A DNA stretch of 64,000 nt, from contig JBGASG010000010.1 in the NCBI GenBank assembly GCA_044229845.1, forward strand, positions 64,001 to 128,000. The letters run 5' to 3'. Shown here piece by piece: positions 49,810 through 61,954 of the stretch. The notes beneath the pieces were generated by a model. The model was not told the origin of the DNA and did no database searches. It worked only from the letters and a program-made list of their open reading frames with translations. A program made the translations under genes and the position numbers. Each line of letters begins with the position of its first letter. Positions within the stretch are counted from its first letter, which is position 1. The DNA is from Candidatus Obscuribacteraceae bacterium (GTDB lineage: Bacteria > Cyanobacteriota > Vampirovibrionia > Obscuribacterales > Obscuribacteraceae).

Positions 49810-50310
49810 ATGGTCCGCATGGCTAAAAAGACCAAACCTGTAGAAGCGCCAATCAAGGACGCAGCGGCGTCGGCATCGCCAGGCACACAACCGGCATTGC
49901 AGCTTCCCGGCACCAGCAAGACGAAAGTCGAGAAAGTGAACAGCTATCTGTCGACCGTTTCGACGACACTGGCTATCCTCGGCGGTGTGGGCACGTTGGG
50001 CGTCTGGCTGGCAGCGAACTTTTACACCGGACTTGTGGAAGTGCGCCCGCAGGGACCTGCCGAATTTGTTGAAGTGCGCGTCTTCGATCAAAAAGGCGAA
50101 TCGACGACGTTTCACACGAGAAGATTTCCGCTCATGCCTGGTGAATATCACCTCGAGATCAAGACGAGCGAGAAAGCGCCTTTTCATGCCGACACCACGG
50201 TGCAATTCACCAAAACATCGGTCGTCGAAGTACCCGCTCACCCTGTTTTGGACAACGAGTCAAAACGACGTTGGTGGCAAATCTGGAAGAAGAAACCAGA
50301 ACAATCATGA
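49810..50310 (+). CDS. Single-TM protein with PEGA-like beta domain
   Basis: One TM helix, then LMPGEYHLEI motif; ATGA overlap with hemL. Confidence 0.6.
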   Translation: MVRMAKKTKPVEAPIKDAAASASPGTQPALQLPGTSKTKVEKVNSYLSTVSTTLAILGGVGTLGVWLAANFYTGLVEVRPQGPAEFVEVRVFDQKGESTTFHTRRFPLMPGEYHLEIKTSEKAPFHADTTVQFTKTSVVEVPAHPVLDNESKRRWWQIWKKKPEQS

Positions 50311-51587
50311 GCGTCACCACGCCTTCTTTCACTCGTTCTCAGCAACTATCTAAAGAGATCGCCGAACTGATTCCCGGCGGCGTCGACAGCCCGTTTCGTT
50401 CGTTCAAAGAAGTAGGCGGCGAGACCATTTTCTTCAATCGCGGATTGGGCTCGCGCATCTTCGATGTCGACGGCAACGAATACATCGATTATCTGGGCGC
50501 CTGGGGACCGGCAATTCTCGGCTACTGCTACCCGGAGGTGGTGGCGGCCTGCCAGCAAGCAGTGTCGGCCGGCGCGCTGTTCGGAGCACCGCACGAAGCA
50601 GAGCTTTCCATGGCCAAAGAACTAACCGCGACCATGCCCAGCATGGAGCAGGTGCGTTTCGTCAATTCCGGCACCGAAGCCGTGATGAGTGCGATTCGCC
50701 TGGCACGCGGATTTACAGGTCGCGATCTGATCATCATGTGCGAAGGAGGCTATCACGGGCACAGCGACTCAGTGCTGGCATCCGTATCGCACCGGTCCAG
50801 CGCCGGCATTCCGTCAGCTACCGCTCGCAACACAGTGCTCGTTCCTTTCAACGACGCAAAGGCGTTGCAAAAGGTGTTGCGCGTACGCGGCAAGCGCGTA
50901 GCAGCGCTGGTAATCGAACCTGTCTGCGGCTCGATGGGCGTCGTGCCGCCCCAGGACGGCTATCTCCAGCAAGTAGCTGAGCTTTGCGCAGCGCATGATG
51001 TAGTGTTGATCTTCGACGAGGTGCTCACCGGCCTGCGTATCGCCCACGGAGGCGCTCAGGCATACTATGGAATCAAACCAGACCTGACTTGTCTGGGTAA
51101 AGCGTTGGCAGGGGGCGCACCGATTGGTGCTTTCGGCGGGCGCCGCGACATCATGCAACACCTGGAACCGATCGGCAAGGTGTATCAGGCCGGTACGTTC
51201 TCAGGCAATCCGGTCACCATGGCAGGCGGCATCAAAACGTTGCAGATTCTCGCCAAACCGGATATCTACGAACACCTGGAAGAGCGTACTGCTCACCTCT
51301 TCGACGGATTGTCCAGGTCGATCGAGAAATACGGCGCCCCCATTCAGCTGCAGCGCGTCGGCTCCATGTTCGCCATTATCTTCGCACCAAATCCGGTGCG
51401 CAACTTTCAAGACTCGCTCGCTATTGACGCGGCCAGCTTCGCAAAATTCTTCCACTATCTATTGAATCGGGGCGTCTATCTCCCGCCGTCCTCAGTCGAT
51501 GCCGCTTGCCTCTCGGCGGCGCATACATCTGATGATATCGACCGCACCATCGAAATCTGCGACCCGGCCATTCAACTGCTTGCTTAA
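50307..51587 (+). CDS. hemL: Glutamate-1-semialdehyde 2,1-aminomutase
   Basis: IPGGVDSP, DVDGNEYIDY, RFVNSGTEA, FDEV, LGK, YQAGTFSGNP. Confidence 0.95.
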   Translation: MSVTTPSFTRSQQLSKEIAELIPGGVDSPFRSFKEVGGETIFFNRGLGSRIFDVDGNEYIDYLGAWGPAILGYCYPEVVAACQQAVSAGALFGAPHEAELSMAKELTATMPSMEQVRFVNSGTEAVMSAIRLARGFTGRDLIIMCEGGYHGHSDSVLASVSHRSSAGIPSATARNTVLVPFNDAKALQKVLRVRGKRVAALVIEPVCGSMGVVPPQDGYLQQVAELCAAHDVVLIFDEVLTGLRIAHGGAQAYYGIKPDLTCLGKALAGGAPIGAFGGRRDIMQHLEPIGKVYQAGTFSGNPVTMAGGIKTLQILAKPDIYEHLEERTAHLFDGLSRSIEKYGAPIQLQRVGSMFAIIFAPNPVRNFQDSLAIDAASFAKFFHYLLNRGVYLPPSSVDAACLSAAHTSDDIDRTIEICDPAIQLLA

Positions 51588-51709
51588 AGCAACAAGGCGT
51601 TCGGTTTGCGCACGAGGGTGTGCGGGTTTGCGCATTGCACGCCCCTAGCCGCCTGCCTATAATCCGAAGAAGCCCCACAAGTTCCCGTACCGTTGGCAGG
51701 AGAGAACAC

Positions 51710-52468
51710 ATGGCTAACACTGCGCACCAGTCCGGTGCGGAGGCGCAACTAGACGCGCCCGCAGCCGGCGGCGATAACAACGCCACCTTGAAATTGGACA
51801 TCAAAGAAATCATGTTACCAGCGCTGAACGATGCTTCGGTCCAGGCTTTCATGATGTCCGTCAACGACATGAAAAAAGGCGGATGCGGCTGCGCAATACC
51901 AAGCACCGACATCTACGATGTAAAAGATTGGACCAGAAGAGACATCGATTCGCAATTCGGGCTCGTACGTCGCGACGAAGGCTACTCTTTCGAGCGCATC
52001 AGGGGTGCCGACGGCAACACCTATGCACTCGACATGGACTACAGCCACGGCGGACCCGGCAGACCGACGGTGTACGAAAGGGACATCTACGGTCATAAAG
52101 TCGAAGTCACCGATCCCGATGTAATCAATGACATCGCGGCACGCGGAAACTACCTGGCAGTCATTGATGCCGCCCAAGATCGCATTGCGAAACTGGGCTG
52201 GACAGACGACCAGCGAAAGGACGCTCAACACATCCTCGATGCCGTCGGCGACAAAAATCCTGAGGCTCTGCAAACGGCTGTCATGCAATACCTATTGGAT
52301 GGCGGCGACTTCCAGAAACTCCTGGTTGGACTTGGCAGTCTGGCGAAGGTACAGGTCAAAGACCTGGACATGAACTGGAGGCACGGACCAGATCATGACA
52401 CCATGAGCATCACGTTCGCCGGTTCCGACCACAGCAACTTCGACTTCACCTGGCCACCAAAATCATAA
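51710..52468 (+). CDS. Unknown-family paralog 1 of tandem array
   Basis: AGGAG RBS then ATG 51710; VKDW..FG..ERIRGADGNTY..VYERD..G..VEVTDP. Confidence 0.8.
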   Translation: MANTAHQSGAEAQLDAPAAGGDNNATLKLDIKEIMLPALNDASVQAFMMSVNDMKKGGCGCAIPSTDIYDVKDWTRRDIDSQFGLVRRDEGYSFERIRGADGNTYALDMDYSHGGPGRPTVYERDIYGHKVEVTDPDVINDIAARGNYLAVIDAAQDRIAKLGWTDDQRKDAQHILDAVGDKNPEALQTAVMQYLLDGGDFQKLLVGLGSLAKVQVKDLDMNWRHGPDHDTMSITFAGSDHSNFDFTWPPKS

Positions 52469-52498
52469 CGGCAACTAGCACCTGGGGAGATCACATTC

Positions 52499-53308
52499 AT
52501 GAGCTACGACACGCACCATTCTGGTGCCCAGATTGACGCAGACACACAAGCGATCAGTTTAGCCGGCAGAGATGCAAGCGGCGACTCGCAGACATCTTCA
52601 TGGCAAGCCAACGCTTCCTTGTTGTCCTTCGATCGAGAAAGCATGCAAGTGGCTCTGGCATCTATCAAGGCGATGGAGAATCGCGAGAGCGGAGTTTCTG
52701 CCGTTACTCCTGGACAAGTTTTGATCACGGACCTGTCCTCGATCAAAGACTGGGAAAAGGTAGACGTGAAAGGACAGTTCGGCATCACGCGCACAAAAAC
52801 CGGCACCGGCGAGTCACTCCATATCGATAGAATTCCGGGACCGGACGGCAAAACCTACGCGCTGGAGTACACCAGAGAAGGTCAAGATGCCAAAGCCTCT
52901 TTCTTCGAAGTGGACGCCAACGGACAGCGCACGGCAGTGACAGATCCCGCACTGCTGCAAGAACTGAGCAAGCGAGCAACTTTGATCAACGTTGTCGACC
53001 TGTCAAAAGATCGCCTGTCGGCTCTGGCATTGACGCCAGAGCAAAAGTCCGCACTGGACTCAATAGCAAATGCAGTCAAAGCACGAGATAGTGCGGCCCT
53101 GAAAGACGCGATCGATGGCTTCCTCAAGAATGGTGGCACCAAGGAAACTCTCTTCATGGCGCTGCCCGCCGAACTGCAGGTAAAGACCGCCAATGCCATG
53201 GTCGCCGGCGGTCACAGCAAAGAGGGCGTCGATACGATCTCGCTCCTGGTATACAACGAAGCGAGCGGAACGTTCGACTTCAATTTCACTTACACCTTTC
53301 CAAAATGA
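52499..53308 (+). CDS. Unknown-family paralog 2
   Basis: GGAG RBS; IKDW..FG..DRIPGPDGKTY..FEVDANG..VTDP. Confidence 0.8.
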   Translation: MSYDTHHSGAQIDADTQAISLAGRDASGDSQTSSWQANASLLSFDRESMQVALASIKAMENRESGVSAVTPGQVLITDLSSIKDWEKVDVKGQFGITRTKTGTGESLHIDRIPGPDGKTYALEYTREGQDAKASFFEVDANGQRTAVTDPALLQELSKRATLINVVDLSKDRLSALALTPEQKSALDSIANAVKARDSAALKDAIDGFLKNGGTKETLFMALPAELQVKTANAMVAGGHSKEGVDTISLLVYNEASGTFDFNFTYTFPK

Positions 53309-53317
53309 GGCTTTCTT

Positions 53318-54058
53318 ATGAGCAACCAGTCACACCCGGAGAGTCCGGGTTTACCAGAAACAAAGTTGATCAAGCCGGAGCAAGCGCCGCCCGCGATCAG
53401 TGGTGGTGACCTCCTGGTGGTCGGCGACACCAATCAGATGAATGGCGTCCTGCAATGTTTCAGAGACATGGAGAGAAGACCCGGATTTCAGGGCAGCACG
53501 GCGGATCCTTTTCAAGTGGAGGACTGGTCGAATATCAATGCTGCCACCACATATGGAGTCGTAAACGATGGTGGCGGGTATTCGATAAATCAAATTCCGG
53601 GCATCGACGGAGAGACATACAGTTATCGTTTCAACCGGGTTATGGATGGCATCAGTCAACGCGTATACAAGCATGATGCTTTCGGCAACGACGTCGAAGT
53701 CACCGATCAGCGCGTGCTCATGGAAATATCCCGTAAGGCTAATTTGATTCACCGCGTCGATGCAAGCCAGCAGTTGCTCTCCACTAAAACCGACGAGCAA
53801 AAAGAGATGCTGGACAAGATGGTGACGGCAGTGAAGAACGACGACATGGCTCGAATCGTAAATCTGCTGACGCAATACGTGCAGGCCGGCTCATCGCTGA
53901 AAGACTGCGGCGACGCATTCGAAGCGGCCGCCACTATTCGCAACGCCGGTGCGTCCTTCGTCTTCCAGCCGAACACCGACTCGGCAACACTTACGATCAG
54001 GTACAAACGCGCAGACGGCGAGGAGAGAGAACTCGACGTCACAATGCCCAAGCAGTAA
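53318..54058 (+). CDS. Unknown-family paralog 3
   Basis: GAGG RBS; VEDW..YG..NQIPGIDGETY..VYKHDAFG..VEVTD. Confidence 0.8.
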   Translation: MSNQSHPESPGLPETKLIKPEQAPPAISGGDLLVVGDTNQMNGVLQCFRDMERRPGFQGSTADPFQVEDWSNINAATTYGVVNDGGGYSINQIPGIDGETYSYRFNRVMDGISQRVYKHDAFGNDVEVTDQRVLMEISRKANLIHRVDASQQLLSTKTDEQKEMLDKMVTAVKNDDMARIVNLLTQYVQAGSSLKDCGDAFEAAATIRNAGASFVFQPNTDSATLTIRYKRADGEERELDVTMPKQ

Positions 54059-54069
54059 GGAGAGACAAT

Positions 54070-54834
54070 ATGAGCGATGTAACACACCCGCTCGGTGTGG
54101 GCTCCCGCGCGGGCGATAACCCGACGCTCAGGCAACCTCTGGATGACACCAGAGAAACTAACCTGAATGTGTTCGACAAGCAAAGTATGACGGAGGCGCT
54201 GGCGGCCATTCGGGCGATGCAGCTTAAGGATGAACCGCTGTCGCCGATACCGGCCGGCACGGAAATTAAGGATGTGTTCGGCAAACACGACTGGGAAAAC
54301 ATCGATTTAGGGAAAGAATTCGGATTTACCAAGACCGAAGACAAACTGGCGATCGAGAAAATTCCCGGCGATGACGGCAAAACCTACAGCATGGAACTCG
54401 ACAGTAAAGACGGTCGGCTAACCGTCTGGGAGGTCGATGCTCAGGGCAACAAGAAGAATGTTGAAGATCCGCTGATCATCTTAGAGATTCTGCAGAAAGC
54501 AAAATATCTCGAAGCCATCCATGACGGAAAACAGTTTCTCGATAGTTTGAACTTAATGCCTGAACAAAAGGGCGCGCTCGATGACGTGATAAATGGCATC
54601 AAGGACAAAGATCCGCAGGCCGTAAAAGATGCTGTTGATGCTTACCTGAAGGCAGGCGGTGACCCGTCCAGTCTGTTCCACGCGCTGGGCACCCTTCTCA
54701 TGCTCCGTCAGGTGGAGGGCATCATTGTGGGCATTCACAAAGTGGACGGCGGCGACAGCATCATGATTGGCTTCGGCAAAGGATCCGACAAGCCGGACGT
54801 GATCATCGACCTGCCGAAACAGATAAAGGCATGA
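54070..54834 (+). CDS. Unknown-family paralog 4
   Basis: AAGGAG RBS; KHDW..FG..EKIPGDDGKTY..VWEVDAQG..VEDP. Confidence 0.8.
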   Translation: MSDVTHPLGVGSRAGDNPTLRQPLDDTRETNLNVFDKQSMTEALAAIRAMQLKDEPLSPIPAGTEIKDVFGKHDWENIDLGKEFGFTKTEDKLAIEKIPGDDGKTYSMELDSKDGRLTVWEVDAQGNKKNVEDPLIILEILQKAKYLEAIHDGKQFLDSLNLMPEQKGALDDVINGIKDKDPQAVKDAVDAYLKAGGDPSSLFHALGTLLMLRQVEGIIVGIHKVDGGDSIMIGFGKGSDKPDVIIDLPKQIKA

Positions 54835-54853
54835 AACACAGGAAGGTGACACC

Positions 54854-55639
54854 ATGAGTCAACTCGAACATTCGCGTACAACCGGCGACCAGGGAGCGCA
54901 CCAATATCCGCCCCCGGAGGCGCTTGGCGAGCAGGAGCGGCACCCTGGCTTCAACCCGGATGAGATCCTCAACGTTACCAATCAACAACAGCTAAGTGAT
55001 GCGCTGAGCGCCATTCGCGCCATGACGGGCTCGACAGAAGCAAGCAACTCCAAGAAGTTACCTGACCCTTTCGCTATAGAGGACTGGAGCGGAATCGATG
55101 CCAAATCGCTATATGGAGTGACTGAGACTGAGAATGGTTGGAAGATTGATAGAGTCCCTGGACTGAACGGCAAAGCATACTCCGTCGTCTTCGAACGAGA
55201 CGAAGGCGGAACCGGCTTTACCGAACGCGTGTATCAAGTCGGTGCCGACGGCGAACTAAAGGAAGTGACGACGCCATACATCGCGGTGCCGGCGATGCGG
55301 ACAGCAGATTTGATTCATCGTGTCTCTGAAAGCCAGGCGGTGCTTGCCAATCCAGAAATCAACGAAGCACAGCACCAGATTCTCGATTCTCTCGTTCAGC
55401 ACATCAGCGAGGGGAATGACGACATGGACCAGCTCGTCAAAGACTACCTGGAAGAAGGCGGCACATTCAAAGAGTTTGTTGAAGCGCTGAAGGCCGCGGC
55501 CGTAGTTAAGGGACTCGACGATGCGGTCATCGAATACAAGCCGAATGTGGACTACGCGCAGGAACTCCGGGTGACGTTTCCACTGCAAGACGAAGTCGGT
55601 TACACCTATCGCTTCGACCCGGTGAGCAAGCCGCTTTAG
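54854..55639 (+). CDS. Unknown-family paralog 5
   Basis: GGAAGG RBS; IEDW..YG..DRVPGLNGKAY..VYQVGADG..EVTTP. Confidence 0.8.
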   Translation: MSQLEHSRTTGDQGAHQYPPPEALGEQERHPGFNPDEILNVTNQQQLSDALSAIRAMTGSTEASNSKKLPDPFAIEDWSGIDAKSLYGVTETENGWKIDRVPGLNGKAYSVVFERDEGGTGFTERVYQVGADGELKEVTTPYIAVPAMRTADLIHRVSESQAVLANPEINEAQHQILDSLVQHISEGNDDMDQLVKDYLEEGGTFKEFVEALKAAAVVKGLDDAVIEYKPNVDYAQELRVTFPLQDEVGYTYRFDPVSKPL

Positions 55640-57372
55640 CGTGACAGAGCCTGATTGACTTCGCCCAGTTCTTTTTCAGCCATCTTCGCCTCGGAAGACG
55701 ACTCGCCATAACGACGTTTCTTCTCAAAAACAACCCACTCGAGCGCTGACTTGGCTGCCTGATAGTCACCGAGTTTGTAATACACACGACCCAGCGATTG
55801 CAAACTATCGCAGTAGCGCGGGTCGGCGTTGCCGAAGCGCCCGGCGACTTCATGCGCTGATTTGAAGTAAGAACGGGCTTGATACAGGTCGCCCATCTTC
55901 TGCGCACGTTGCGCGGCTTGCATGTACTGGGTGTAGTAATCCCCCAGTGAATACTGGCGTACGGGCTGTGCGGCTTGTTGATATCGCTGTGCGTATTGCT
56001 GCTGAGTAGCAGGTTGCGCATACTGCTGTGTGGCAACCGGCTGAGGTACGGCTTGTTGAGAAACAGGTTGTTCAACCGGCGGCGGTTGCATAGCCACTGG
56101 TTGCGGCTGGAATGCCGGCTGTTGCGCAACCGGTTGGAGGGCTGTCGGGGAAGTTCGCGCGGCAGTCGACCGCGTGACCGGTTTCAACTCATCATCAGCC
56201 TCGGGGCGCGCTGCCGGATGCATCATCTGGAAGGCGAAAACAAAGATTGCCACCACACCGCAGGCGGCCAGTCCCAGCACCGCTGGATGCACATGCCCGA
56301 AAGTCTTCTGGACTTGATCGATCTGCTCGTGCACCTGAGCAGCTACATTGGCTGGTATCGGAATTGAGAGGGTGACATGGTGCCCGGCACGAATTGCTTC
56401 CAGGGCTTTCTGCAATTCGTCCATGGTTTGAAAACGATCATCCGGAGACTTGGCCATGCATTTGCGGACCACATCTTCCAGACCACGCGGGAAAGTAATC
56501 TCCGGAACAGCCTCGATAAACGAGGGAATGTCTCCGTGCACCTGCTGGTACATGCATTCAATTGGGCTGCCGCCGCTGAAAGGCGTACGTCCCGTGAGCG
56601 AGAAGTACATGACGCAACCCAGCGAGTAGACGTCTGAACGCACATCCTGTGGTTTGGCGCCGCACTGCTCAGGACTCATGTATTGCGGGCTGCCGAATAT
56701 CTCGCCTGTGGCGGTGAGTTTGGCGGCGTCGCCCAGTTCGGTTTCGTCCAGTTTGGCAATTCCGAAGTCGACGATCTTGACGAAATCGGGATTGCCGTCG
56801 TAATCGCAGATCATAATATTGGCCGGCTTGATGTCGCGGTGGATGACACCGCGTGCATGGGCATGCGCCAGTCCGGCCGCGGCGGCAATGAACATCGGCA
56901 CCGCCCGCGATGCCAAAATCGGGTGACCTTTTTTGACCATGTGGTCGAGGTTGGTGCCCTCGATGTAATCCATGACCAGATATGGCTGACCGCCCTCCAC
57001 ACCGACATCGGAAACGCGCAGAATATTCGGGTGGTCCAACAAGCTGAGGGCATTGGCTTCCTGCAGCAAGCGCTTCATCGCCGCTTTGCTGGTGATCAAA
57101 GTAGGCAATATGGTCTTGATGGCGACAACGCGATTCATCAATGTATGGCGCGCTTTGTAAATGCGCCCCATGCCACCATCAGTAATGGCTTCGGTGATCT
57201 CGTACTTGCCCCCGATGATCATGTCGGGTTTCCAGGGTTCCTGCAGCTCAACCAGCGTCGACTGATCGAACGGGCACGTGCGCTCGCCTTCCTCGTACTC
57301 CTCGTCGCAGATCAAACAGACCATGCGCTTGGGCACGTGCATCCTCAATGAATCGATGCTGTGTTCGCTCAT
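55636..57372 (-). CDS. Hanks-type Ser/Thr kinase with N-terminal Zn ribbon, TM helix, Gln-rich linker and C-terminal TPR
   Basis: CLIC/CPFD, VAIK, HRDIKPANI, DFG, GSPQYMSPEQ, DVYSLG; TM; TPR-like SLGRVYYKLGDY. Confidence 0.92.
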   Translation of the reverse strand: MSEHSIDSLRMHVPKRMVCLICDEEYEEGERTCPFDQSTLVELQEPWKPDMIIGGKYEITEAITDGGMGRIYKARHTLMNRVVAIKTILPTLITSKAAMKRLLQEANALSLLDHPNILRVSDVGVEGGQPYLVMDYIEGTNLDHMVKKGHPILASRAVPMFIAAAAGLAHAHARGVIHRDIKPANIMICDYDGNPDFVKIVDFGIAKLDETELGDAAKLTATGEIFGSPQYMSPEQCGAKPQDVRSDVYSLGCVMYFSLTGRTPFSGGSPIECMYQQVHGDIPSFIEAVPEITFPRGLEDVVRKCMAKSPDDRFQTMDELQKALEAIRAGHHVTLSIPIPANVAAQVHEQIDQVQKTFGHVHPAVLGLAACGVVAIFVFAFQMMHPAARPEADDELKPVTRSTAARTSPTALQPVAQQPAFQPQPVAMQPPPVEQPVSQQAVPQPVATQQYAQPATQQQYAQRYQQAAQPVRQYSLGDYYTQYMQAAQRAQKMGDLYQARSYFKSAHEVAGRFGNADPRYCDSLQSLGRVYYKLGDYQAAKSALEWVVFEKKRRYGESSSEAKMAEKELGEVNQALSR

Positions 57373-58763
57373 TCGTCCTCTAAGATCTCCGCTTTCACGC
57401 GGCCGTCCTTCACGGCTTTGAGCAGTGCTTCATGGTCCCGCTCAGTTTGATCGGCATACTGCACAGCCCACGAACCGAGCGCTTTATCGAACGTATCCCC
57501 ATCCCCGAGGTAGCCGGCGATAGTAGCCGCGTCTCCGCTGCGAGCGTGTGCCTTGGCCAACACCTCTCCGAAAAGAGTGCCCATCTTGATCAAGTGCGAG
57601 GCTTCCCAGGTGTCGGTGGTCAGTTTGACTTTGGTATCGCGCAGTTGCCTGACATAGAAATGCACGCCCTGCTTGCCCTGGAACCAGCCCAGGAAGATAT
57701 CGCTGGCTGATTGCACAACACGCTGTCCGGTGACGACACGCTGCCCATGGTTTTCGAACTCACTCTTTCCCGTGTACTTTTCCAGCACCGAGTTGTTGGC
57801 TTGTTTGACTTGCAAGAAGAGCGGCTCGCCATCAGGTGACATCATCAAGATGATGTAGCAACGAGTGCCGACACTGCCAATCCCGACTACCTTAATGGCC
57901 GCATCGATAAGTTTGTAGCGCTCGAACAGATGGCGCTTGTCGTCTTGCAAGGATTCTTTGTAGGCGTTCAAACCCCAGACTGCACGCTCCATAAAATCAG
58001 GATCGTTATCCGGATGGTAGATCAAGGGCGGGTTGTCTTTGATCTTCGAAAGCCCCCCGGCATCGCTTTCGGTCAGCTTAGGAAACATGCGCCAGCTGGT
58101 CTTCTTAACAGCTTTCTTCAGGTCGTCCTGCAGGTTTTTCTTGAGGGCGGCGCAAGTCACGTTGTTGACTGTTTCTTCCCAGTCGAGCTTGTAGTACCAG
58201 ATGTCCAGAATCGCCAGCGATGACAGCTCCGACATCTTCATGCGATAAGCACGCGCCACCTGTTCAGCAGCGGCAAGCGCATCGCGTTTCTTCAGACCGT
58301 TCTCGCGTGCGATCAGGACTACGCTCACGGCCAGGCGTTTGAGATCCCACTCCCAGGGACCGGGCAGTGTTTCGTCAAAGTCGTTGAGGTCGAAAACAAT
58401 GTTTCTCTCCGGCGTGGCGAACGCACCGAAATTGAGCGAGTGACAGTCTCCGCAGAGTTGCACCTTCACGCGGCTGATCGGAGTTGTCGAAAGGTCGCTG
58501 GCCATGACCGCCGCCGCCCCACGAAAGAAAGTATGGGGAGACTTGAGCATTCGTCCATAGCGAATCGGCACCAGCTCCGGAAGGCGGCCTTCATCTTGAG
58601 CCAGCAAGATGTCGATCGGGTCCGGACGTTTGTCCGCCGGCTCCCAATTGCAATGCTTTTCATGAGGCACGGCGCCAGCCAGAACTTTGCCGCGCGCCCG
58701 CCGGTCGTCACGGGGCGTCACCGTCGCGTCGTGCAGTATTGCCATCTTCTCTTCTTTAGCCAC
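57369..58763 (-). CDS. DUF2252 family protein (kinase-like fold)
   Basis: LVPIRYGRM..SP..FFRG, CGDCHSLNFG, FDLNDFDE, PWEWDLKRL, KVVGIGSVGTR; ATGA overlap with the kinase. Confidence 0.88.
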   Translation of the reverse strand: MAKEEKMAILHDATVTPRDDRRARGKVLAGAVPHEKHCNWEPADKRPDPIDILLAQDEGRLPELVPIRYGRMLKSPHTFFRGAAAVMASDLSTTPISRVKVQLCGDCHSLNFGAFATPERNIVFDLNDFDETLPGPWEWDLKRLAVSVVLIARENGLKKRDALAAAEQVARAYRMKMSELSSLAILDIWYYKLDWEETVNNVTCAALKKNLQDDLKKAVKKTSWRMFPKLTESDAGGLSKIKDNPPLIYHPDNDPDFMERAVWGLNAYKESLQDDKRHLFERYKLIDAAIKVVGIGSVGTRCYIILMMSPDGEPLFLQVKQANNSVLEKYTGKSEFENHGQRVVTGQRVVQSASDIFLGWFQGKQGVHFYVRQLRDTKVKLTTDTWEASHLIKMGTLFGEVLAKAHARSGDAATIAGYLGDGDTFDKALGSWAVQYADQTERDHEALLKAVKDGRVKAEILEDE

Positions 58764-60004: not shown

Positions 60005-61954
60005 CTAGTACCAGCCTTTTCGCATAGCTTTTACGACCACTTCTACCCTATCCGAAATGATGTAGCACTCAGCTTCCTGATAGCCCGCCCGCATAAACTG
60101 CGAACGGCTGCGCAGGAGATGACGATACTCCTCGTCGATGGTCTGGTAGATGACATTGCGCACCCGCTCCGCCACCTGGCGAATCGGCTCGCCGTGCTCG
60201 GTGCCGAATAACTGTTCGGCAAGCGCGATGTAGTCTCGCAATTTGACGCCCACGCCCAGATGCCCGTTGGCGAGCGCCAGGCGCACACAGTCTTCCAGCT
60301 GTTCGCGACACTTGGTCAATTCGTAGACCAGCACTTCCGGTACACAATTGGAATTGAACAGTGTCTGCACCGACTTCATATCGCGCAAGCAGGAGAGCAA
60401 TTGGAAGTCATAGTCGCCGGAGAGAAGCTGTCCAGCCGAGCCAATGAGTACATCAAGCCTGGAGTTGATTGCCCTGACATAGTCGGTCCAGAGCTTGGCG
60501 TTCTTCGCATCTTTGAAAAGATGCATGGCACGCTGCCGTTCAGCCGGAGTCAAATGCTGATCGGCACGCAATCGCAGCACAGCCAGCAAAAACATGTGGC
60601 TGGGCGCGTAGCCGACACCCTCCGCATATTTCTCCCAGAGCGGCATGATCTTGTCGGCATGGCGACCGTATTGCAAACGCAAGTCGTCGGCAATCATGCG
60701 GATGATCAACACATCCTGCCCCATGTGTCCAAGCTCGTGCAAGAGCGCCGACATGACGTCTTCCGACATCGGCTCGTCTTCGAATAAAATCCAGCGCTGC
60801 AAGTTGACGATGCCTTCGCCGACTATATAGGAAGCGACGGAGTTGTCATTGCGATCGATGAGATTGAGTTGCGCGTACGGCAAGCTCAAAAGCGTGGTAA
60901 TCTGCGTTACCAGCGGCTGCAACTCTTGAATGCGCCGCTCGCTAATCTGCGTTAGCTGGTGGCGCAGAGTCTCCACCTTTTCGTTTAACAGCGCGTGTTG
61001 AGGATCGCCTTCTTCAAGGCCATCGAGGTCGTTGCTGCCGCGCACGAATTCCAGATACAGATCATTTGCCGGCAGTCCATCTTGCCAGCGGAAATTGGCA
61101 CCGAGTTGCACCAGGTAATAGAGCAGCCTGACGTCGGCCATGGGGAAGAAGTCCAGCCCTTGCGGGACGACGCCTTCCGTTTGCCAGTGGTGCATCAACC
61201 AGCGCGTCGCCAGCGCCGAGATCTCATCGTCACCATCCCTGGTGGCATACCAGTAGGCGCGTTCCCGCATCGGTCCCGGCAGCGAAGACAGCATCCGGAT
61301 CGATTCGGTCTTGACGCACTTATGCACGTGATTGGACTTGTAGAGATACTTGCACCCACCCGGTTCCGGATCTCCGAGAATCTCGCACAAGGCGGACATC
61401 TGCTGCTTCGGATCGAGGCTCAGGCACTGCCACAGAAGCGGGAAGTAATAGGCGGACCAGTTGCTGTCGTCGGTCAATTGCCCGATCAAACTGAGCACCG
61501 CCGATAGTTTGGCTTTGTTTTCGGCGATCAAAAGCGGAATATGATCCGCCTGCAATCGCTCGAGCAAAATGCCGCGTGCCAGGTCGTTGTCTTCTTTATC
61601 AACGATGCCTTGCAGAGCCGGAATAGCAGCCGCTGAATTGCCGCGCGCCAGACTCTCGAGCAGTTGCAGCGATAACTCTTTTTCTTTGAGTTCATGAATC
61701 TCGTGAATGGCCACTTCGATCAGATCTTCGTCCACGGCTGCTTCAGCAAAGCGAATCAGCTCAGTGAAATTGCTGGTAGAAACCAGCAGCCGCAGCTGAA
61801 TTTTGGCCGACTGCTCCTGGCGGAGCTTGGTCATTTCAGCGTTTTCCGGGACGGCATCCGCCGTCTTTTTCAAAAGCTTGTTTCCAGCAGTCTCCAGTAC
61901 ACTCGTCGCCGCAGCGACAAGCCGGGTCACCGGATTATCTATTGATAGTTGCAT
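60005..61954 (-). CDS. Helical-repeat protein with HExxH zinc-metallopeptidase-like motif
   Basis: 649 aa, Leu-rich helical N-terminus; SALLHELGHMGQD; distal QEAECY. Confidence 0.55.
   Translation of the reverse strand: MQLSIDNPVTRLVAAATSVLETAGNKLLKKTADAVPENAEMTKLRQEQSAKIQLRLLVSTSNFTELIRFAEAAVDEDLIEVAIHEIHELKEKELSLQLLESLARGNSAAAIPALQGIVDKEDNDLARGILLERLQADHIPLLIAENKAKLSAVLSLIGQLTDDSNWSAYYFPLLWQCLSLDPKQQMSALCEILGDPEPGGCKYLYKSNHVHKCVKTESIRMLSSLPGPMRERAYWYATRDGDDEISALATRWLMHHWQTEGVVPQGLDFFPMADVRLLYYLVQLGANFRWQDGLPANDLYLEFVRGSNDLDGLEEGDPQHALLNEKVETLRHQLTQISERRIQELQPLVTQITTLLSLPYAQLNLIDRNDNSVASYIVGEGIVNLQRWILFEDEPMSEDVMSALLHELGHMGQDVLIIRMIADDLRLQYGRHADKIMPLWEKYAEGVGYAPSHMFLLAVLRLRADQHLTPAERQRAMHLFKDAKNAKLWTDYVRAINSRLDVLIGSAGQLLSGDYDFQLLSCLRDMKSVQTLFNSNCVPEVLVYELTKCREQLEDCVRLALANGHLGVGVKLRDYIALAEQLFGTEHGEPIRQVAERVRNVIYQTIDEEYRHLLRSRSQFMRAGYQEAECYIISDRVEVVVKAMRKGWY

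Follow-up and report, generated by a model that had tools for sequence, protein, structure and literature searches.

A tandem array of five paralogs in an Obscuribacteraceae genome exposes an undescribed, family-wide C-terminal protein module

Here we characterize a tandem array of five co-oriented genes, paralogs A to E, at positions 51710 to 55639 of a 64,000-nucleotide stretch of a Candidatus Obscuribacteraceae genome (assembly GCA_044229845.1, contig JBGASG010000010.1, positions 64,001 to 128,000 of the forward strand), hereafter the window. The host belongs to a lineage that is related to cyanobacteria and does not photosynthesise. The five proteins end in an undescribed module that is family-wide and confidently folded, and the array is one genus-level expansion of that module and not a self-contained system; the first-pass annotation had named it the best candidate for an undescribed system in the window. 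Each protein is predicted to consist of an acidic disordered leader, a private beta-meander domain and the C-terminal module. Our preferred reading, held tentatively, is that the five are non-enzymatic binding or co-effector proteins exported via a VirB4-type machine of the order Obscuribacterales. The comparisons cover the five array proteins, a 17-member full-length set and the family genomes (96-104 depending on the search); G000 denotes the genome carrying the array (88% complete; 3,778 called genes) and G001 a genome of the same genus.

The C-terminal half of the array proteins first matched proteins of six other genomes. An iterated search then recovered the module in 63 of 104 family genomes, and a later search in 67 of 96, versus 2 of 204 others from the rest of the class, both borderline; two matches fall in family f6 (E 2e-4 and 8e-4). 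Because at most 14 candidates were scored per genome, module copy numbers are lower bounds. In hhalign, the C-terminal half aligned with 37 distant module copies at a probability of 97.6, versus 1.1 for a reversed control; alignment A4 leaves out 4 of these 37 rows as duplicates or fragments. A module profile built without the five ranked B, C, D and E 4th, 7th, 8th and 11th of the 3,778 called genes and A merely 19th, a ranking that is not fully independent because the seeds were first found with the five. A canonical module copy folds at a predicted local distance difference test (pLDDT) of 91 and a predicted template-modelling score (pTM) of 0.85, and three more clear copies lie on other contigs of G000. 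Literature searches, with few subscription papers among the texts covered, brought up no description of the family or the module.

The five genes, with protein lengths in amino acids (aa), isoelectric point (pI) and the ratio of nonsynonymous to synonymous substitution rates (dN/dS) where they set a gene apart, are as follows:

51710..52468, plus strand: paralog A, 252 aa, pI 4.7; slowest evolving, dN/dS 0.08
52499..53308, plus strand: paralog B, 269 aa; structure modelled (pLDDT about 88 over residues 80-269, pTM 0.68)
53318..54058, plus strand: paralog C, 246 aa; sister clade of E
54070..54834, plus strand: paralog D, 254 aa; its G001 orthologue has a 16-aa in-frame deletion in the module's helices
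54854..55639, plus strand: paralog E, 261 aa; fastest evolving, dN/dS 0.25

All five are intact, separated by 30, 9, 11 and 19 nt and each preceded by a GGAG/GAGG-type ribosome-binding site, and these coordinates agree with the layout first described, between hemL and a convergent kinase gene. All ten paralog pairs align (23-37% identity, BLASTP E 1e-44 to 5e-12), with pairwise z of 22-57 against 200 shuffles per pair, so the five are indeed homologous and highly divergent. The shared motifs listed in the first-pass annotation exist at the level of a consensus and are not literal in every paralog: A reads IRGADGNTY, E reads VPGLNGKAY and VTTP, B reads FLKNGG, and A and C fit the L..D...M..AL..IRAM helix loosely. 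The five have no confident family match in Pfam (best E 0.086) or NCBIfam (best E 0.0098), nor any in PADLOC, PHROGs or PDB sequences; the best PADLOC match (E 0.003) concerns 1 of the 17 members, and the best defence or immunity library matches (E 0.001-0.003) concern 1-2 of the 17. In a tree of the 17 proteins, each of A, B, C and E clusters with its orthologues (100/99-100), and the clade of C is sister to that of E (99/97); D has no orthologue among the tree rows, and long branches leave the deep joins unsure. The earlier description of an old, diversified and unrecognised family is thus borne out, and neither outcome that the first-pass annotation named as refuting it applies, be it a confident full-length match to a characterised family or non-significant pairwise alignment among the five.

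The full-length form occurs in 2 of 104 family genomes, G000 and G001. The latter keeps all five in unchanged order and carries a sixth copy at another place (L014:547-1332), which stands alone between a Nudix-like gene and a small convergent gene, in a region with no DNA match in G000. Near this copy lie a toxin-antitoxin-like pair and a RecD-like helicase, both read by eye. A profile search of 1.84 billion representatives returned 13 matches, of which 9 belong to the family, among them four orphan metagenome proteins; P0013, P0014, P0016 and P0017 (4 of the 13) were dropped as chance matches to repeat proteins with signal-like starts. P0005, where a lactonase domain follows the first 107 residues of A on a single contig of 1.5 kb, is probably an assembly chimera and was handled as one. 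Neither P0012 nor P0015 led to a locus when metagenomes were scanned (0 of 95 and 0 of 81 candidates, respectively). P0003, P0042 and P0044 agree in the length of their longest contig, 5,798, which suggests that there is another, more diverged array, the third of its kind.

Between G000 and G001, dN/dS from A to E is 0.08, 0.20, 0.20, 0.15 and 0.25, with a pooled value of 0.18 (bootstrap 0.14-0.22); for 65 other orthologues on the contig the median is 0.047 and the pooled value 0.08 (Mann-Whitney p 0.001). The dS does not differ between the five and these 65 neighbours (p 0.10). The five are genuine genes, kept by purifying selection yet evolving at a higher rate than their neighbours. Such a run of tandem, divergent, soluble and faster-evolving paralogs could be an orphan immunity or decoy array, in which each paralog neutralises a different incoming toxin variant, and the helicase and toxin-antitoxin-like pair near the sixth copy would fit as well. 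We consider this improbable: no toxin gene flanks the five, a toxin followed by a small module gene was seen in 0 of 41 module loci viewed (many with just 1.5-kb flanks, and with Pfam run on part of the neighbours), the paralogs are kept in order without turnover in two genomes, no PADLOC match is better than E 0.003, and the module is itself part of toxin-like giants. Tandem immunity arrays are known for TipC, DUF600 and SUKH, which likewise form runs of divergent soluble paralogs; here, in contrast, there is neither a cognate toxin nor a family match, and the orthologues are positionally stable. Structural alignment with TipC2 gave Z 5.2 at a root-mean-square deviation (rmsd) of 4.6 over 92 residues.

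The anatomy of the family is read from the model of B, the one paralog modelled:

52499..52717, plus strand: B residues 1-73, predicted disordered acidic leader (pLDDT <50) with one conserved helix at residues 46-60
52748..53023, plus strand: B residues 84-175, private N-domain, predicted five-strand beta-meander plus long helix
53024..53305, plus strand: B residues 176-269, family-wide module, predicted three helices plus three-strand beta-meander

The full N-domain was found solely in the array's own family; among 104 genomes there are just three weak partial matches outside the genus, and in two of these the matching part is the tail of HExxH proteins that form a family-wide group. Columns conserved in at least 7 of 10 members are mostly Gly, Pro, aromatic (Trp, Tyr), aliphatic and Asp, with no Arg, Lys, His or Cys column at that threshold, and HExxH occurs in 0 of the 17 members, in line with the earlier remark that no catalytic motif is visible. 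In Foldseek, the TMq of B did not exceed 0.21 for PDB structures or 0.20 for viral models, and the module gave no E under 0.001. VIA gave no Z of 8 or more (best 6.8 for B and 6.4 for the module), and ESM Atlas yielded a best score of 0.76 for B and nothing usable for the module; absence of a fold match does not establish a new fold. Rad50/SMC fold rows were rejected at rmsd 8-28 A, as was a circular permutation or internal repeat in which the N-domain equals the module's second half (probability 0.2-2.6). Derivation from a zincin was set aside and remains a lead: just a 35-column tail motif is shared with the HExxH group (probability 33-57), and the leader helix is unaligned. HExxH proteins of this family-wide kind, which have no Pfam match, occur in 86 of 104 genomes, with five in G000 (C19:276545-278386 and four more; L101, L102, L113-L142). 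In the window itself, positions 60005-61954 on the minus strand encode a 649-aa protein with an HExxH like that of the giant proteins described below, no Pfam match and a distant paralog on contig C13.

Beyond the array, the module sits mostly in proteins of 200-450 aa with acidic low-complexity leaders, encoded singly or in tandem pairs among unrelated neighbours with no constant cargo adjoining. Among 47 module-bearing reading-frame rows (two of them duplicates), 42 have no hydrophobic stretch. Compared with the genome, the first 40 residues of 28 module proteins and of the five show higher acidity and lower hydrophobicity, and none of nine patterns examined as a shared N-terminal motif was enriched across the proteome. 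The five themselves are all acidic (pI 4.5-5.0); they have no transmembrane helix, because their maximum 19-residue hydropathy is only 0.6-1.4, and no Sec signal, because their N-termini are acidic, which upholds the original call on both counts.

In proteins of 2,600 aa the module lies at residues about 450-590, preceded by a weaker second copy (probability 75). Two of these giants carry an AvrB/AvrC domain (E 2e-9 and 9e-9), one shows an HExxH motif, and they adjoin giants with polymorphic-toxin phosphatase, PRTase-CE or FHA domains. A link from the C-terminal half of the five to effector-like proteins is therefore supported, and of the effector or immunity array first proposed, the effector side gains while the immunity side, with no adjoining toxin and no turnover, does not. 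Tandem runs of leaderless proteins of 1,500-2,600 aa with AvrB-type, DSP-phosphatase, PRTase-CE and FHA domains occupy L068:509-20000 and L071; several leaderless giants have a single hydrophobic helix at their end, and the AvrB-type giants are not followed by any small immunity-like gene. A profile of five giant tails, made for a pilin-like tail, gave no match in G000. Many G000 proteins above 1,300 aa (contigs C1, C8, C9, C18, C21 and C22) have no signal peptide and start with a similar acidic, low-complexity leader.

Two PDZ-S41 proteases (L074:5289-7580 and L075:1764-4055) carry the module as their C-terminal domain (probability 93.9). Here a signal peptide and two transmembrane helices joined by a basic loop precede it, and for this reason the module is predicted to lie outside; this topology favours an extracytoplasmic place for the module and counts against its being purely a type IV signal. 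In other S41 proteases, wall-binding domains take this position, so the module might instead anchor proteins to the cell's own envelope, with the five as structural blocks of an envelope or surface layer; among PDB sequences, the module profile indeed matches an S-layer protein best (E 0.0016). The similarity is weak, however, and surrounded by many helical chance matches, full-length members come from a single genus in the 104 genomes, and the five have neither signal peptide nor anchor, so that this too is a reading to which we give little credence.

A route for leaderless export may be available throughout the order. At E 1e-50, a VirB4/TraC-like ATPase was found in 47 of 47 genomes of the family, 2 of 2 of the sister family and 0 of 151 others, with full-length orthologues 75-86% identical, and G000 has two VirB4/TraG-type ATPases. 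On contig C17 of G000 (L090:10258-19936) the VirB4/TraC-like ATPase gene has unannotated membrane-protein neighbours. FHIPEP (type III/flagellar) and VipB (PF05943) were not found in this 88% complete genome, and the VipB control matched in E. coli.

Under our tentative reading, the five would be expressed together and would leave the cell without a signal peptide, probably via the conserved VirB4-type machine. The shared module would bind a common docking site and the private N-domain a partner that differs per paralog, and outside the cell the proteins would serve in docking or escort, much as MIX domains do. A bolder version, which we think unlikely, makes the module a new effector-marker or docking domain, the MIX counterpart for an order-wide chromosomal type IV system, and the five its co-expressed co-effectors.

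A number of observations weigh against export by this route. There is no direct evidence of secretion, and the array adjoins no secretion gene and has no physical link to the VirB4-type genes. In the 88% complete G000, the VirD4 coupling domain (PF12696) and PF03135 gave no match, and all four VirB10-like matches fall below the Pfam cut-off. The module is not purely a type IV signal, because it is also found on the Sec-exported proteases. Many type IVA substrates have a basic C-terminal tail, and the last 25 residues of A to E carry net charges of -3, -2, 0, +1 and -1, not such a tail. Acidic disordered leaders occur in cytoplasmic proteins too, most module proteins have no recognisable effector domain, dN/dS far below 1 shows no positive selection or arms race, and kin genomes are not independent samples.

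The flanks of the array hold the following features:

50307..51587, plus strand: hemL-like class-III aminotransferase, upstream neighbour (context only), ending 122 nt before A
51604..51634, plus strand: two GTTTGCGCA copies, spaced 22 bp apart and directly preceding the -35 box, both conserved in G001
51635..51663, plus strand: predicted sigma-70-type promoter TTGCAC-17-TATAAT, 11 of 12 hexamer bases kept in G001
55636..57372, minus strand: Ser/Thr kinase with TPR, convergent downstream neighbour (context only), no functional link found

In the promoter spacer, 5 of 17 bases differ between G000 and G001. The TTGCAC-17-TATAAT pattern occurs twice in the genome, the other instance preceding a tRNA-Gly-like sequence (read by eye). 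A consensus scan between hemL and A reported no promoter and no terminator; it missed this promoter because TTGCAC matches 3 of 6 positions. The GTTTGCGCA pair is unique in the genome, the single 9-mer occurring 124 times, and is a possible operator. Between hemL and the pair, G001 has about 50 extra bases (window 51588-51604 compared with L012), and homology of the two genomes resumes at the first GTTTGCGCA copy. No Rfam RNA was found in 50000-58000 of the window. Short exact RNA-library contigs touch all five genes, with the flanks equally sparsely covered, and one begins upstream of the predicted promoter's end; these contigs may stem from DNA carry-over. None bridges a gene junction by at least 31 nt; these contigs prove neither transcription nor a single transcript, and the co-transcription assumed in the first-pass annotation is not demonstrated.

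The short gaps, the single predicted promoter and a gene order shared by both genomes would also suit proteins that stay inside the cell. The five could then assemble into one hetero-oligomer, or form a set of chaperones or adaptors for loading cargo onto a secretion machine. The supported clades that A, B, C and E each form with their own orthologues, the conserved helix within an otherwise disordered leader and the uniformly low pI agree with this, and secretion chaperones are acidic. We nevertheless find it rather unlikely, given that the sixth full-length copy is solitary in G001, that most module genes are single or paired with no constant cargo adjoining, and that the module is predicted to face outward in the S41 proteases.

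The kinase next door, whose stop overlaps that of E by 4 nt in convergent orientation, invites a further reading in which the five are signalling adaptors that bind phosphopeptides or its TPR. Kinase-like genes are numerous (106 among 3,778 called), and the N-domain has a polo-box-like topology (Z 6.3, rmsd 2.8, 73 residues aligned); a polo-box comprises six strands and a helix and has a peptide-binding site. This Z lies within background, no Arg, Lys or His column is conserved in at least 7 of 10 members, and no kinase lies beside the sixth copy. The neighbouring gene is convergent, and 3 of 41 module loci have a kinase no more than two genes away from the module gene, compared with a baseline of 7.8% for the genome. 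Lacking such enrichment, the suggested link to the TPR is not supported, and we regard a signalling role as very improbable.

Set against known systems, the module has partial counterparts. Bartonella BID and Xanthomonas XVIPCD are type IV secretion translocation domains, which feature a positively charged C-terminal tail; PMC12857230 contains neither of the two names. The likeness lies in a C-terminal folded module, leaderless proteins, co-occurrence with Fido-type domains and a lineage with a VirB4-type ATPase. The five differ in having no Pfam match and no basic C-terminal tail, and the module's predicted fold of three helices and a beta-meander has no listed match to BID or XVIPCD. PF20410 had no match in G000, but its control likewise gave none. 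The module resembles type IV translocation domains in position only.

MIX and FIX type VI effector-marker domains occur alone or fused to toxins, according to the main text of PMC10673891. The module too occurs alone and fused to toxin-type domains. In contrast, the Pfam and NCBIfam matches of the five and of the module copies include no curated MIX-type profile, VipB was not found in the 88% complete G000, no vgrG stands beside the array (its neighbours being hemL and the kinase), and the module is C-terminal in the five and also borne by Sec-exported membrane proteases. By analogy, the five may work like MIX domains, yet they do not belong to them. For the machine, the model is the lineage-wide chromosomal VirB4 system of Patescibacteria, which the main text of PMC12102498 considers co-opted beyond conjugation. 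The likeness to the proposed export route is this lineage-wide chromosomal VirB4; unlike the module, that system concerns the machine and not its cargo, and 'cyanobacter' is absent from that main text.

The papers retrieved on Obscuribacterales deal with metabolism, not secretion, and the word 'secretion' is absent from the main text of PMC4040986. The array alone, a genus-level expansion, matters less than the module it exposed, which occurs in about two thirds of the family genomes, both alone and in giant AvrB-type proteins. The Obscuribacterales are uncultured. The module offers a handle for listing exports and asking for their interaction partners. If the docking-domain reading is true, the module would label the cargo that these bacteria use in an unrecognised way of life, whether contact-dependent, predatory or host-associated.

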